NCBI GenBank assembly: GCA_964538855.1
Contig: CAZIEY010000001.1
Span: 82,811-146,810 of the forward strand
DNA: 64,000 nucleotides
DNA from: an uncultured Candidatus Saccharibacteria bacterium
Lineage (GTDB): Bacteria; Patescibacteriota; Minisyncoccia; Phycocordibacterales; JAACPR01
Reading direction: 5' to 3'
A program made the translations under genes and the position numbers. Below the pieces are notes generated by a model. That model did no database searches. It saw only the letters and a list, made by a program, of their open reading frames with translations, and had not been told where the DNA came from. Positions 15,367 through 48,549 of this stretch are shown here, in pieces (the stretch's first letter is position 1; each line of letters begins with the position of its first letter).

Positions 15367-17952
15367 CTAATTTACTGATGTGCTTAATGAATATGTATTT
15401 ATAAACGCCTGAGTGTGTGGACCAAGAACTCCTGTCCCTGATGTCAGACCAGCGGGTTCAAGAATACTTTCTTTGTTTGCTTCTTGGAATTTCTTGAGGG
15501 CAATTTGAGTTAGTATACCAAAATACGATGTCTCAGAACCCCTTGAACCCGGGCCTGAAGTATTTATCGTAAATCCGTTTGCGTTAAGGAATTTTTGAAG
15601 CTCTACAACATCTGGATCTGTCACCTGAGGACGAAGGATTTTATTAAAAATAAACTTTGTATTGGTTGTTGATGTAACCTCTATCGGCGCTATGTTATTT
15701 TCTGGTTCAACTTCGCTTTGTACCACAACTGATATTGATTGTTGATCTGTAAATTGATTTGGGTATTGATTTATGAGAACGTTTGCTGCCTCGATATTGC
15801 CCATGTCGGTTAAATTCCTAACCCTTCTTGCAACAGAAGAACCCGGGGATCTTCTTGGTGTATCTTCCTCAACTACAGGTTCACTTTCTGTGGTAAAACT
15901 CCAAGTTGTGGCGTCAGAAATTCCTGCATAACTATTACCACTCGTGTCATCAAATGCCGTCGCATCGATTTGCACATAATACTCTGTTTCATATTCAAAA
16001 TCCGCAGTTGGATTTATTGTAATTATCGTTGTACCTGTTCCTGTTACTAAAAGTCCAGTGACGTCCATCGCCTGTACTAATGAATCATCACTTGATTTAT
16101 AAAGAGAAATATTTCCTGTCTCAACGTCTACTATTTCATCAAAAGTAATAACCAAATTTGCATCAAGGTCAACATCGATCGCTCCATCAAGAGGCGAAAG
16201 ACTAGATACTGCAGGAACACCAGTGTCGGCGGTGGTAAAACTCCACGAAGTCGTATCTGAAATTCCTGCATAACTATTACCACTCGTGTCATCAAATGCG
16301 GTCGCGTCGATTTGGATATAATATTGAGTAAAGCTAGATAATACTGTATTCGGATTTATAGTAATGATTGTTGTTCCGGTACCAGTGACAAGACCACTCG
16401 TCACATCGATGGTTTCAATAGTGGAATCGTCGCTTGATTTTTTAATCGTAATGTTTCCTGTTTCCACATCGACCGCCGTATCGAATGTCAAAATCAAGTT
16501 CGCTGTTGCAGAAACGCCTGTTGCATTATCGGCTGGCGATAATGTCGAAATAATCGGTGCAGTCGTATCAATCACCAACGCCTTGTTTGCGGCGAGGTTT
16601 GTCGTCGGTACAAAATTACTCATTGCATTTGCTGATGCGTCTGCGATCGTTCCAGAAATACTTGAAACAGTCAGGTCAGCCGACGTATCACCTGCTTGAA
16701 CGGTATAGTTACATGTTCCTGTTGTAGTTGCAGTCACTGAAAAAGTACATGTTCGATCAGTATCTCCCGTTTCCAATGTAACAGTCACATCTCCCGTCGA
16801 GGTTACTACTTCGGAAAATGTGACGTCAATATCAATTACTTCACCAACGGTGTAAGAACCATTTGTTTTATCGGATGAAACATTAGTAATTGTCGGCGCA
16901 GTAACATCAGAATAGTCTTGCCATAACAGATATGGGTATCCATCATTATTTACCCCATCAATAGCCCAAATAGTACTAAAATCCCAACCGGAATAGGTTC
17001 CTTGGGTTTTCATTTGTGATGTTGTTTTACCTACGACACCTGCCCCACCACCGGATGTGGCGCGCCCAGATGTTTCGGTATCCCAATACGAACTTGTCGT
17101 GTTGGTATAGCTTGATCCAGCCAGACCTCCGACATTACTCGGAAAACTGCCAGACACCATCGTTATTGACCCTGTGGAGTACAAATTTGTTTTAGTACCA
17201 CTACTATAATCATTTCCATACAATCCTCCAACAGATCCTTGGTTAGCAACACTGTATGTCAATACAATATTACTGCGTGAATAAGAATTGTTAATCGTCC
17301 CACCACTATACGCTTCACCAGCAAGACCTCCAAAACAACAAGTCGCAGCCCCCGTCGGAGTGAAGTAGACTGTGTTATCTGAATATGTTTGCGTCATGGA
17401 TCCATAATTTGAACCAACTAATCCACCGGTGCGTTGGAAACCAGTGATTGAACCATCAACAACACTCACTTTTGATATGGCACCAGTATTTGACCCTACT
17501 AATGCTCCAACACCCACATTTCCCGTGACTACAGCATTGTTTAATAATAAATTTGAAATAGTTGCACCACTGGCTACATATCCAAAAAGTCCAACATTGT
17601 TTGTTCCTGAACTGTTGTAATATAAATTCGAAATGGTTTTGAAATCACCGTCAAACTTTCCGTAAAAATACGAACCACTTGTTCCAATCGGTGTCCATCC
17701 GGTTCCTGTATTATAAGGGGAAACGTTTAAATCAATATCAGCATCCATTTTAAAATACTTCCCTGAATTTCCTGCACCTAGACAATTTGAAATCGCAGCA
17801 AGTTCAGTCGGTGTGCTAATTAAATAGGGTGCTCCTACGGTTCCTGATCCGCCTGTAATACTATCTCCGCATGCAGCAAAAGCCTCTGGTGTCATCACCG
17901 CAAATAACACAATTGCAATAATAAAATAAAGCCATCTCTTCATAGAAAACAT
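15367..17952 (-). CDS. large cell-surface protein: signal peptide, GLUG/beta-helix repeats, two tandem Ig-like (Big) domains, C-terminal peptidoglycan-binding domain
   Basis: Two ~115 aa near-identical repeats (…LSPADNATGVSATANLILTFD… / …LSPLDGAIDVDLDANLVITFD…); G-rich GGLVGSNYG/GGLAG repeats; C-terminal PDVVELQKFLNANGF… PG_binding_1-like; start chosen at MFSMKRW (17952) directly abutting a TGTTATAAT -10 element. Confidence 0.7.
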   Translation of the reverse strand: MFSMKRWLYFIIAIVLFAVMTPEAFAACGDSITGGSGTVGAPYLISTPTELAAISNCLGAGNSGKYFKMDADIDLNVSPYNTGTGWTPIGTSGSYFYGKFDGDFKTISNLYYNSSGTNNVGLFGYVASGATISNLLLNNAVVTGNVGVGALVGSNTGAISKVSVVDGSITGFQRTGGLVGSNYGSMTQTYSDNTVYFTPTGAATCCFGGLAGEAYSGGTINNSYSRSNIVLTYSVANQGSVGGLYGNDYSSGTKTNLYSTGSITMVSGSFPSNVGGLAGSSYTNTTSSYWDTETSGRATSGGGAGVVGKTTSQMKTQGTYSGWDFSTIWAIDGVNNDGYPYLLWQDYSDVTAPTITNVSSDKTNGSYTVGEVIDIDVTFSEVVTSTGDVTVTLETGDTDRTCTFSVTATTTGTCNYTVQAGDTSADLTVSSISGTIADASANAMSNFVPTTNLAANKALVIDTTAPIISTLSPADNATGVSATANLILTFDTAVDVETGNITIKKSSDDSTIETIDVTSGLVTGTGTTIITINPNTVLSSFTQYYIQIDATAFDDTSGNSYAGISDTTSWSFTTADTGVPAVSSLSPLDGAIDVDLDANLVITFDEIVDVETGNISLYKSSDDSLVQAMDVTGLLVTGTGTTIITINPTADFEYETEYYVQIDATAFDDTSGNSYAGISDATTWSFTTESEPVVEEDTPRRSPGSSVARRVRNLTDMGNIEAANVLINQYPNQFTDQQSISVVVQSEVEPENNIAPIEVTSTTNTKFIFNKILRPQVTDPDVVELQKFLNANGFTINTSGPGSRGSETSYFGILTQIALKKFQEANKESILEPAGLTSGTGVLGPHTQAFINTYSLSTSVN

Positions 17953-18016: not shown

Positions 18017-18195
18017 TGCTGCCCGACAGGGACTCGGTCACAGGTTTTCTTCGCTTCGCTACGAAACCCGCGACCCCGCCTCGCGACCTATTTCTCACTA
18101 CGTTCGAAACAGGTAACCCGCTCCGGCTTTCGAGTCCTGACGTAACGCTCTCGCGTTACTTCGGACATCACTCCGCTCGCTTCGCTTGCTCCGTG
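18017..18195 (-). repeat. tRNA-trailing GC-rich element ending in 20-nt direct copy of tRNA-Gln 3' end
   Basis: 18017-18036 is identical to 18194-18213 (tgctgcccgacagggactcg); contains GGGGTCGCG and GTGACCGAG blocks shared with the Leu and Trp elements; strong internal hairpins (GTAACGC/GCGTTAC). Confidence 0.6.
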
Positions 18196-18266
18196 CTGCC
18201 CGACAGGGACTCGAACCCCAATACCCGCCTCCAAAGGGCGGTGTCCTACCATTAGACGATCGGGCA
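18196..18266 (-). tRNA. tRNA-Gln (anticodon TTG)
   Basis: Manual fold: acceptor TGCCCGA/TCGGGCA, D-loop AATGGTA, anticodon loop CTTTGGA, T-loop TTCGAGT; CCA not encoded. Confidence 0.8.
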
Positions 18267-18324
18267 AAAAGACAATACGACAAGCATACTATTTTTAGGT
18301 TGAAATTTCAACTTATTTTTAATC

Positions 18325-18379: not shown

Positions 18380-18418
18380 CAAGGCCTGCAGGTTCCGTCC
18401 TGCAGGACCTGTTTGTTT
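18380..18418. terminator. bidirectional intrinsic terminator (palindromic CCTGCAGG stem, loop TTCCGT)
   Basis: 8-bp perfect stem; T-tract GTTTGTTTTT on plus strand, U-rich tract on minus; ends the NYN gene (minus) and any plus-strand short transcript. Confidence 0.6.
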
Positions 18419-31671: not shown

Positions 31672-31755
31672 GCCGGAGTGGCGGAATTGGTAGACGCGCA
31701 CGACTCAAAATCGTGTATTCGAGAGGATGTGAGGGTTCGAGTCCCTCCCCCGGCA
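31672..31755 (+). tRNA. tRNA-Leu (anticodon CAA)
   Basis: GCCGGAGTGGCGGAATTGGTAGACGC… long variable arm, anticodon loop CTCAAAA, T-loop TTCGAGT; CCA not encoded. Confidence 0.85.
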
Positions 31756-31767
31756 CATTATTAAAAA

Positions 31768-31797
31768 ATCTCCTATTCTTTAGGGGATTTTTTAATA
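31768..31797 (+). terminator. intrinsic terminator after tRNA-Leu
   Basis: ATCTCCTA…TAGGGGAT hairpin followed by TTTTTT. Confidence 0.6.
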
Positions 31798-31969
31798 ACT
31801 GTGTAAGGGATCTGGGACGAGAAAGGCGGAGGCGTGGGTCCCCTGTGTCGAGAGTATCGAGACCTGGGGCGCCGAGCCGGGGTCGCGAACACTTAGATTT
31901 TTATGAGTGAGTCCCTCGAGCGAAATAAAAAGCTTAGTGATTCGTGACCGAGTCCCTCCCCCGGCACCA
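31798..31969 (+). repeat. tRNA-trailing GC-rich element ending in 19-21-nt direct copy of tRNA-Leu 3' end (with CCA)
   Basis: Blocks GCCGAGCCGGGGTCGCGAACACTT (31871-31894) and TTAGTGATTCGTGACCGAG (31934-31952) are shared with the Trp element; 31949-31969 cgagtccctcccccggcacca copies the tRNA-Leu T-arm/acceptor. Confidence 0.65.
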
Positions 31970-37104: not shown

Positions 37105-37333
37105 TGCGGGTCCACCACTCTCGGTCACGAATCACTAAGTAAAATGCTTCGCCTCGACCATATTTCGATAGATGATGACGGCTCGCATTTTACAAAGTGT
37201 TCGCGACCCCGGCTCGGCCATCCCAGATTTCGCTGCGCTCCATACTGGGACCCTTGGCCTGCGCCTTTCGAATCCTGGTGGACCTCGCAACAAAAATCGC
37301 CGCCTCCTCTCGGAGACGGCTCATTTTGTTGTG
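37105..37333 (-). repeat. tRNA-trailing GC-rich element ending in 13-14-nt direct copy of tRNA-Trp 3' end; contains inverted copy of tRNA T-arm
   Basis: Blocks GCCGAGCCGGGGTCGCGAACACTT (rc of 37195-37218) and ACTTAGTGATTCGTGACCGAG (rc of 37119-37140) are shared with the Leu element; 37105-37117 tgcgggtccacca duplicates 37332-37344; 37267-37284 ttcgaatcctggtggacc is the inverted complement of the tRNA 3' region. Confidence 0.65.
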
Positions 37334-37405
37334 CGGGTCCACCAGGATTCGAACCTGGAACCTCAGTTTTGGAGACCGATGTTTTACCATTGAAACTATA
37401 GACCC
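37334..37405 (-). tRNA. tRNA-Trp (anticodon CCA)
   Basis: GGGTCTATAGTTTCAATGGTAAAACATCGGTCTCCAAAACTGAGG…TTCGAATCCTGGTGGACCCG; CCA not encoded. Confidence 0.85.
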
Positions 37406-48473: not shown

Positions 48474-48549
48474 TGGAGCCACCTGTCAGGCTTGAACTGA
48501 CGACCTGCCGTTTACAAAACGGCTGCTCTACCAACTGAGCTAAGGTGGC
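48474..48549 (-). tRNA. tRNA-Thr (anticodon TGT), CCA encoded
   Basis: GCCACCTTAGCTCAGTTGGTAGAGCAGCCGTTTTGTAAACGGCAGGTCGTCAGTTCAAGCCTGACAGGTGGCTCCA. Confidence 0.85.

Follow-up and report, generated by a model that had tools for sequence, protein, structure and literature searches.

We analyzed a 64,000-nucleotide (nt) stretch of DNA from an uncultured Candidatus Saccharibacteria bacterium (GenBank assembly GCA_964538855.1, contig CAZIEY010000001.1, positions 82,811–146,810), hereafter called the window, and found that three of its four tRNA genes are followed by a short structured element bounded by two copies of the tRNA 3' end; the arrangement is seen nowhere else in the 64 kb. It measures 0.15–0.25 kb, is built around a conserved core of ∼110 nt, and belongs to a family that we traced through the Patescibacteria, or candidate phyla radiation (CPR), of which the window organism is a member. 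The reading that we favor, to which we give a probability of about 45%, is that the element is a selfish insertion in the tails of CPR tRNA genes that contains no open reading frame (ORF), mimics a tRNA minihelix, is released as RNA by enzymes, and has a core serving its own propagation.

A preliminary description of the window had claimed a 20-nt perfect repeat of the 3' end of tRNA-Gln 157 nt downstream of that gene, and the repeat proved to be exact. Positions 18017–18036 are identical at all 20 nt to 18194–18213, and 157 nt separate the two copies. The tRNA-Gln(TTG) gene lies on the minus strand at 18266..18195 (ARAGORN; 56.7 bits with the Rfam tRNA model); it is intact and has no encoded CCA, G73-C74-A75 being followed by cgg. 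The upstream copy (18213..18194), here X_up, is the 3' end of the working tRNA, its last 20 nt running from C56 in the T-loop through the 3' strands of the T-stem and acceptor stem to G73-C74-A75, and the second copy, X_down (18036..18017), lies 157 nt 3' of the first in the direction of the tRNA. When the window was shuffled 30 times with its local composition preserved, no exact repeat of at least 16 nt arose within 400 nt, which excludes chance as the cause. In the real window, repeats of this kind were found at tRNA-Gln (20 nt) and tRNA-Leu (19 nt; 31738/31949), and the repeat trailing tRNA-Trp is 13 nt long (37105/37332).

The region between the two copies was also said to be GC-rich and structured, and both properties were borne out by measurement. 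The 157-nt spacer has a GC content of 58% compared with 42.7% for the window, and 100-nt windows gave 58–63% within the spacer and 25–40% in its flanks. The spacer and repeat together fold at -75.4 kcal/mol, with z = -3.9 relative to dinucleotide shuffles. Assembly from a metagenome brings with it the general caveat that repeats may be collapsed or chimeric, and the preliminary description had named an assembly-derived repeat as the finding that would overturn it. However, the Logan assembly of run SRR13208889 is identical over 521 nt of the tRNA-Gln locus, and more than 100 unrelated assemblies from different projects show the same tRNA-tail architecture; an assembly artefact is therefore excluded, its probability being negligible.

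The three window copies share one plan. On the tRNA strand, an intact tRNA ending in X_up is followed by a spacer, a copy antisense to the tRNA tail (X'), a junction strand (U/G)(C/A)GAAA, the helix P2 with base GSC...GSC, internal loop and upper hairpin, the dinucleotide GG, the helix P3 (GGUCGCG...CGUGACC), and X_down. Behind tRNA-Gln, where all parts lie on the minus strand, the spacer is a plain linker (18168..18193), with no terminator on that strand between the tRNA and its element. X' is split in two: its outer half TGTCCGA (18161..18167), antisense to the acceptor 3' strand, pairs with 18021–18027 of X_down in the minimum-free-energy fold, and its inner half GTCAGGACTCG (18131..18141), antisense to the T-loop and the 3' strand of the T-stem, forms the 5' strand of the inner part of a closing helix, P1. 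A predicted hairpin, P0 (18142..18159; GTAACGC GAGA GCGTTAC), separates the halves and has equivalents in many loci, among which its loops are conserved too (CUGC / CCUGCGC). The junction J1/2 (AAA) and P2 (base GCC...GGC, internal loop GGA/GA, upper hairpin) occupy 18078..18130, and J2/3 (GG) and P3 (GGTCGCG...TGTGACC) occupy 18036..18077, P3 containing a bulged A and a G.U pair that is conserved. X_down (18017..18036), the displaced original tRNA end, supplies the 3' strand of P1.

The sister copy behind tRNA-Leu(CAA) (31672–31756) lies on the plus strand at 31757..31969 and consists of a terminator hairpin, the element (match to the covariance model described below, 31812–31959), and X_down (31949–31969). 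Behind tRNA-Trp(CCA) (37333–37405), on the minus strand at 37105..37332, a terminator is followed by the antisense copy, the core, and X_down (37105–37117); here X' is an 18-nt perfect antisense match (ggtccaccaggattcgaa) and the fold has z = -7.0. The spacers of both the Leu and the Trp copy thus hold a classical terminator-like hairpin. The fourth tRNA gene, tRNA-Thr (48474–48549), is followed by a terminator only.

The preliminary description had taken the tRNA-Gln spacer for a diverged member of a family that includes the Leu and Trp sites, and this part of its interpretation stood: a covariance model matched exactly these three sites in the 64 kb, with 72.9, 63.9, and 39.6 bits, the Gln match starting at 18140. 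The strings that it reported as shared, GGGGTCGCG and GTGACCGAG, are real and turn out to be the two strands at the base of P3, and its hairpin GTAACGC-GAGA-GCGTTAC is the recurrent P0. In contrast, the proposed pairing of TCGAAA with TTTCGA falls outside the conserved fold, TCGAAA being the conserved junction J1/2, and the tandem duplications seen in GGTCGCGAGG/GGTCGCGGG and in GCGAAGCGAAG are by-products of the conserved P2 3' and P3 5' strands and of GNRA-like mini-hairpins, not duplication events. The antisense tail copy, the three-way junction, and the spread across the CPR had all been overlooked.

A search pattern built from the invariant strings matched all three window sites, with none expected by chance, and retrieved at least 117 loci from a species-representative genome collection. 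Among the matches listed, those in AT-rich DNA were nearly all from Patescibacteria (Saccharibacteria, Paceibacteria/Parcubacteria, ABY1, and others); the GC-rich matches from other phyla, which lay in DNA that is itself GC-rich and were not preceded by a tRNA, were treated as chance. The covariance model, R1, was made from 52 sequences with a structure drawn by hand, and the window Leu and Trp copies were kept out of its training. R1 detected 154 copies in 96 sources, comprising the three in the window and 151 in 95 other loci (loci of all searches carry the prefix L below). Ninety-eight of the 154 start no more than 150 nt (median 56 nt) 3' of a same-strand tRNA, with 17 isotypes represented; another 16 stand in tandem behind another copy, 14 lie at contig edges, and 26 are orphans. 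Remnants of a tRNA tail were still visible in several of 19 orphan flanks inspected. In the R1 loci, 97 of 185 tRNAs are occupied, a proportion biased upward because the loci were chosen for carrying at least one element.

Some loci are crowded. The 5.4-kb contig L106 holds seven copies and four tRNAs, so that tRNA clusters and their tails make up most of it, and L114, L084, L060, and L100 are likewise extremely dense. Two contigs labeled Nanoarchaeia (L034 and L051; SMAG_U14930) raised the prospect of a cross-domain occurrence in DPANN archaea, which we rejected: they encode a bacterial RodZ-like protein and an M23/LysM murein endopeptidase and are probably of CPR origin, binned by mistake with an archaeal metagenome-assembled genome. 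We suspect the same of short contigs labeled Gammaproteobacteria, Cytophagales, Bacteroidota, and Pseudobacteroides (L014, L036, L079, and L078).

The conserved part of the element is a three-way junction of 109 positions. X' and X_down close it as P1, in effect an acceptor/T-arm minihelix of the neighboring tRNA; the predicted folds of the Gln, Leu, and Trp copies have the helix geometry expected of a tRNA-like substrate of RNase P or the CCA-adding enzyme, namely a stack of ∼12 bp with an unpaired discriminator at its end. In the hand-aligned set, 89.4% of cells were paired compared with 73.1% after shuffling and 33–40% when slid (32–40% over both alignments), and the covariation score was 0.44 versus 0.17, a value reached by none of 500 shuffles. 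A model-based alignment of 96 copies, including ones outside the search pattern, gave 90.2% paired versus 66.0% shuffled, changes on both sides at all 30 pairs, and a covariation score of 0.58 versus 0.18; this alignment is fitted to the model and therefore leans toward structure, and an independent MAFFT alignment agrees with it. By helix, P1 columns were 77–80% paired with compensatory changes present, P2 helices were 87–99% paired with covariation at the S-S pair of the base (GC in 27, CG in 24), and P3 had both-side changes at all 14 of its pairs in the model-based alignment, its G.U pair being kept in 85 of 93 sequences. The strand that has the sense of the tRNA folds better than its complement for P3 in 89 of 90 cases (median difference -7.4 kcal/mol) and for P2 in 79 of 90, which indicates that the tRNA strand is the active one. 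The tips of P2 and P3 often share a module of a tandem G.A/A.G step, a stem of 2–3 bp, and a GNRA-like or GAAG loop, as in GA-GC-GGAA-GC-GA and GCGAAGC (L006, L015, and window 18046–18060); it could serve to bind a protein, in the manner of a K-loop, or in docking.

Comparison of the tail copies indicates which end of the tRNA gene is the older. Element-free tRNAs of the CPR genomes (L006–L121 and the window) have CAA after the discriminator in 39 of 128 cases and CCA in 33, and CPR tRNA genes most often have 'CA' immediately behind the discriminator, even where CCA is not encoded. X_down has the same preference in its trailer (CCA in 11 of 40, CAA in 9 of 40), and the tail attached to the tRNA diverges into element sequence directly after N73-C74(-A75). 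In six loci X_down has an encoded CCA and the tRNA copy does not, with the reverse in none; tRNA-Leu of the window is among the six, its displaced tail (31949–31969) ending in GGCACCA and the working tRNA (31737–31756) in GGCACAT, without CCA. Because the native CCA or CAA trailer stays with X_down, X_down and its flank represent the ancestral end of the tRNA gene. The segment of the tRNA body from C56 to about C74 was therefore supplied by or duplicated with the element, keeping the tRNA functional.

On its left side the duplication starts at the T-loop: in copies behind tRNAs whose loop is TTCAAAT or TTCGATT, the element ends ...GTGA(C/T)|CAAAT or |CGATT, respectively. Across loci the duplicated length is 13–36 nt. 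X_down matches the tRNA 3' end at 18–20 of 20 positions in ∼40 loci and is decayed in a further ∼35, in some of them down to 7–13 of 20, while the tail of the tRNA itself is intact. X' follows the cognate tRNA as well. Its longest exact antisense match averages 10.6 nt, compared with 5.9 nt when the tRNAs are permuted, and matches of at least 10 nt occur in 52% of cognate and 5% of permuted pairs. Because X' has Watson-Crick partners where the tRNA 5' strands use G.U pairs, it is a true inverse copy of the tail and not a copy of the tRNA 5' strands. In many loci the inverse repeat continues through the trailer into the terminator-like hairpin, forming a perfect palindrome from the T-loop to X'.

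The position of the elements bears on how they are transcribed. In 15 cases the next same-strand tRNA lies no more than 90 nt from the end of the model match, in 8 of these no more than 32 nt, and in L015 X_down ends 2 nt ahead of tRNA-Met. Such elements, lodged within tRNA operons where neither a promoter nor a terminator would fit, are thus transcribed as part of the pre-tRNA. At tRNA-Gln, a promoter-like site (TTGAAA-17-TATGCT, 18311..18283) precedes the tRNA, and no terminator stands ahead of the element. The preliminary description had placed the Gln copy before a putative leaderless promoter of a large surface-protein gene. We rejected a 5'-untranslated region, riboswitch, or T-box leader of the downstream gene, the surface-protein gene included: the next ORF is on the same strand behind 59% of the elements and behind 61% of element-free tRNAs, and many copies are followed by another tRNA or a convergent gene. 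As downstream orientation equals that behind element-free tRNAs, the element relates to the tRNA and not to the surface-protein gene. An intrinsic terminator or plain tRNA trailer was also discarded, since the Gln copy has no terminator and the 109-position junction is conserved.

Several features are signs of a selfish or mobile past. Arrays of one to three copies stand behind single tRNAs, and orphan, truncated, and decayed copies are present. Among 34 metagenome loci with the tRNA-Gln tail of the window, 2 carry this core, ∼8 have the layout but another core, and ∼20 carry nothing; in three of the last group, the visible tRNA-Gln (last 74 nt) is identical to that of the window. The alternative 'type 2' core, which R1 does not detect, is shorter and unrelated in sequence (CUCGAAAA-GGUUGCC...GACAACC-UGUACUGAA-small hairpin). 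Its cassette consists of a terminator, the outer X', P0, the inner X', CUCGAAAA, two small hairpins, and a sense copy of the tail ∼140–155 nt downstream, and it occurs behind tRNA-Gln at L130/L133/L160, L145, L147, and L152 (also L143 and L134; see also L019 and L030). L144, L155, and L158 may carry a third core type. In a separate case, in L046, ∼1.4 kb (∼1530–2960) separates tRNA-Leu(GAG) from its element; an ORF ending ∼100 nt before the element has, by eye, the C-terminal motif of an IS3-family (rve) transposase, which suggests an insertion sequence in the tail hairpin.

We propose the following course of events. The element would enter a tRNA gene by recombination or copying between the T-loop and position 74. 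It could spread in this manner from one tRNA gene to another as a selfish element and would do no harm, since the tail is restored and a terminator is often brought along. The tRNA-like closing helix would lead RNase P, acting on the 5' side, and the 3' trimming and CCA machinery, acting on the 3' side, to release a discrete, stable RNA. The conserved core would bind a trans-acting factor or be catalytic, in either case for its own propagation, and the mobilizing enzyme would be encoded elsewhere or be an enzyme of the host.

A number of results weigh against this proposal. No integrase, reverse transcriptase, transposase, or HUH gene was enriched within 4 kb of ∼100 copies found with the pattern, and clustering of the neighboring proteins in these flanks returned housekeeping families only. 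ORF-bearing or split variants were looked for and none was found, the Gln insert being 157 nt without an ORF. The full sequence pattern had no match in IMG/VR, where the 20-mer alone gave chance coding matches only, and blastn searches of GenBank phages and PLSDB plasmids found nothing. In 58 of 98 spacers, a terminator-like hairpin with a run of at least 4 T lies upstream of the core, so that transcription into those copies would need read-through. Where the T-loop is not CGAG (window Trp, L036, L068, L085, and L120), X' matches the real tRNA and X_down keeps CGAG(A); X' thus tracks the tRNA rather than X_down, and P1 with X_down is imperfect at these loci. Conservation of the core across CPR classes would fit a host function too. 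Median identity is 0.62 for copies of one locus or genome and 0.56 between genomes, and 24 of 94 copies have their nearest neighbor in their own locus (2 expected); this only modest likeness within loci indicates that several old subfamilies coexist and that the spread is old, not ongoing. Finally, a clean pair of filled and empty orthologous sites was not recovered. The L139 contig (1720–1784) and L141/L156 are 98% identical over 1.78 kb, up to 39 nt past tRNA-Gln, and are unrelated beyond the tail hairpin, one with an element and the other without; because the homology ends inside the tail hairpin, that hairpin is a synteny breakpoint, and we could not accept the pair as a clean insertion. 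Homologues of the adjacent NYN gene did not lead to an empty site either, the nearest relatives being ∼60% identical and the three examined lacking synteny.

The main rival to the selfish insertion is an RNA that serves the host, a domesticated or native module acting as a stable tRNA-like noncoding RNA or in processing, which we regard as doubtful, yet the most serious competitor. In one variant, a dummy acceptor helix would give RNase P and the 3' machinery a defined cut site behind single tRNAs in RNase-poor genomes. Strong conservation of core sequence and structure across CPR classes, an occupancy of roughly one half among tRNAs of the sampled loci, the location in tRNA operons abutting the next tRNA, the sense-strand specificity, and the age and divergence of the copies all speak for a host role. 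They have to be set against the patchy presence behind identical tRNA-Gln genes, the tandem arrays of two or three with decayed and orphan copies, the sharing of one layout by two or more unrelated cores, and the many copies that lie behind a terminator-like hairpin; moreover, a processing signal need not copy a specific tRNA. It is also conceivable, if rather improbable, that the element works at the level of DNA, its fold acting in single strands, either as a non-autonomous IS200/IS605 (PATE-like) element or as a folded recombination site in the manner of attC or the CTX-phage attP. The palindrome running from X_up through the hairpin to X' would then rebuild a double-stranded tail for a recombinase supplied in trans. 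The strand-specific structure with its conserved G.T mismatch and bulged base in P3, the long perfect palindromes from the T-loop through the hairpin to X', the d(GCGAAGC)-type mini-hairpins, and the serial tandem insertion typical of target-regenerating sites agree with such a site, as does the fact that ∼200 bp is too small for easy circularization as duplex DNA. However, no gene for a Y1/HUH transposase, TnpB, IntI, or Xer-type recombinase is enriched within 4 kb, the intra-operon position means that the strand is transcribed anyway, and GNRA-type loops and multiple G.U pairs suit RNA. IS200/IS605 elements also make no target duplication, whereas 13–36 nt are duplicated here, and the 4-kb flanks contain no TnpA or TnpB; both results speak against membership in the IS200/IS605 or PATE group.

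We consider it improbable that the element is a silent T-loop intron or ribozyme, that is, an insertion from C56 to the end of the core with its own copy of the 3' exon, in which the three-way junction would join both 'splice sites' and may self-cleave, ligate, or exchange the tail. Whichever way X' pairs, the boundaries 55|56 and P3 end|C56 do come together at the junction; its strands (GAAA, GG) are conserved and made up largely of purines, a G.U pair is conserved too, and Patescibacteria are reported to abound in ORF-less self-splicing tRNA introns (PMC13011429). Yet Rfam searches of the three elements at E ≤ 10 recovered no ribozyme (hammerhead, HDV, twister, pistol, and hatchet included), no group I or II intron, and no tRNA-like family, the overlapping rows being chance matches far below threshold, and Rfam 15 at the gathering threshold found only the four tRNAs in the window. 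The ∼110-nt two-helix core lacks group I architecture; since the upstream tRNA is complete, Intron_gpI is not matched at E ≤ 10, and the fold has only P1–P3 and no P3–P9 core, a group I intron was rejected. An obligatory intron was rejected too, as virtual splicing of 56 copies without an adjacent tRNA rescued no interrupted tRNA; the upstream tRNA is always complete, so that splicing is never required, and X_down is decayed in many loci. Comparison by hand of the junction strands with hammerhead, HDV, twister, and C/D-box motifs was likewise negative, P3 with its GUGACC being a covarying helix. Integration by a tyrosine integrase is classically recognized by a direct repeat that extends from the T-loop to the 3' end of the tRNA gene, and the displaced copy keeps its native trailer, as would be expected of attL/attR scars left in the T-loop by an integrase-bearing island or prophage deleted down to ∼160 bp. 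Such a relic is effectively refuted by a single ∼110-nt covarying core in at least 150 copies at 17 tRNA isotypes, by the lack of similarity to phages or plasmids and of an IMG/VR pattern match, and by the expectation that deletions arising separately would not all stop at one structured segment. An intact integrase-borne island or prophage was rejected as well: the tail repeat is present (20/20 at Gln, 19 nt at Leu, 13 nt at Trp), but the Gln insert has no ORF, and within 4 kb of ∼100 copies no recombinase family is enriched and no integrase remnant was found.

A bolder form of the selfish reading seems unlikely to us. It holds that these are a new class of tRNA-gene parasite without a protein gene, acting through RNA, with a catalytic or polymerase-recruiting junction, X' as a guide to the tail, and an RNA intermediate. 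Such a parasite could move by exchange of tRNA tails at the T-loop or by self-primed 'snap-back' copying of a terminated pre-tRNA. Snap-back copying would directly explain the perfect palindromes of tail, hairpin, and antisense copy that stop at the T-loop. With at least two unrelated cores in one cassette design, the family would be a branch of a wider, so far unrecognized group of CPR tRNA-tail elements.

Insertion into the tail of a tRNA gene flanked by a repeat of that tail is a textbook idea, and the element resembles several known systems in part. Like the T-loop class of tyrosine-integrase att sites of prophages, islands, and integrative and conjugative elements, it inserts at tRNA 3' ends with a repeat from the T-loop to the 3' end, supplies the working tail while displacing the original, and builds up in tandem at the regenerated site; unlike them, it has no integrase or any other gene at 0.15–0.25 kb, forms a covarying, strand-specific three-way junction with an internal antisense copy of its target, and sits inside tRNA operons. 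PATEs, REP/BIME elements, and TnpB omega-RNAs are also multi-copy, ORF-less, and made of strand-specific hairpins, with a scaffold followed by flank-derived 3' sequence and a terminator-like hairpin at the upstream end. In contrast to these, the element has a target duplication, no nearby TnpA, TnpB, or RAYT gene, a strict position at tRNA tails, and a closing helix that is the target sequence itself. An acceptor/T-arm mimic ending a non-tRNA transcript is also found in mascRNA (the MALAT1 3' end), the bacterial YrlA Y-RNA modules, viral 3' tRNA-like structures, and the Neurospora Mauriceville retroplasmid, and such a helix could attract a polymerase, RNase P, or enzymes that act on 3' ends. 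Here, however, each locus has its own mimic, copied from the tRNA beside it, two conserved helices stand at the T-loop position, and the element has no Rfam match to any of these families.

Two further comparisons concern RNA-based mobility. According to PMC13011429, ORF-less self-splicing group I introns are plentiful in Patescibacteria tRNA genes; they share with the element the phylum, the residence of an ORF-less structured RNA in tRNA genes, and a GC content above that of the genome. As described there, these introns interrupt the anticodon loop and must splice, whereas the element follows an intact tRNA and its core is far too small for a group I fold. The same paper reports group II introns, a common origin of bacterial reverse transcriptases, to be absent from Patescibacteria. 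The primer-binding site of retroviruses and long terminal repeat elements, with 10–24 nt complementary to a specific tRNA 3' end just inside the upstream repeat, offers another parallel, although in the element the complementarity runs into the gene trailer and not into a post-transcriptional CCA, and there is no reverse transcriptase. The literature searched yielded these anticodon-loop introns but no description of the element, and journals beyond that search may hold one. What appears to be new is the combination of a gene-less three-way-junction RNA closed by target-derived repeats, an intra-operon position, at least two alternative cores, and a distribution across the whole radiation.

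Other features of the window stand apart from the element. The genes that neighbor the elements in the window are housekeeping genes, with Pfam matches to ParB, DnaX, a Mur ligase, Dus, and NYN. The interval from the NYN-domain gene to the promoter of tRNA-Gln contains, at 18385–18406, a perfect 8-bp palindrome (CCTGCAGG n6 CCTGCAGG) that has T-runs on either strand and looks like a bidirectional terminator. An unrelated 41-nt exact direct repeat (15917–15957 and 16259–16299, spaced by 342 nt) within the gene for an 858-amino-acid Big_5/PG_binding surface protein probably reflects repeated Ig-like domains.

These observations have practical consequences for work on the CPR: displaced tails and antisense copies can confuse the annotation of tRNAs and att sites in these genomes, and R1 is a ready marker for mis-binned CPR contigs. 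The genomes of CPR bacteria are among the smallest and most streamlined in bacteria, and yet, in the sampled loci, roughly every second tRNA gene is followed by a GC-rich, structured RNA core of ∼110 nt. If this core serves the host, it points to an unrecognized step in the tRNA biogenesis of reduced genomes. If it is selfish, it is a rare case of a mobile element that has no gene of its own and, by supplying a second tRNA tail, would leave its target unharmed; such an element may exploit universal tRNA processing, which makes the old 'genomic tag' idea of tRNA-like ends testable in living bacteria.

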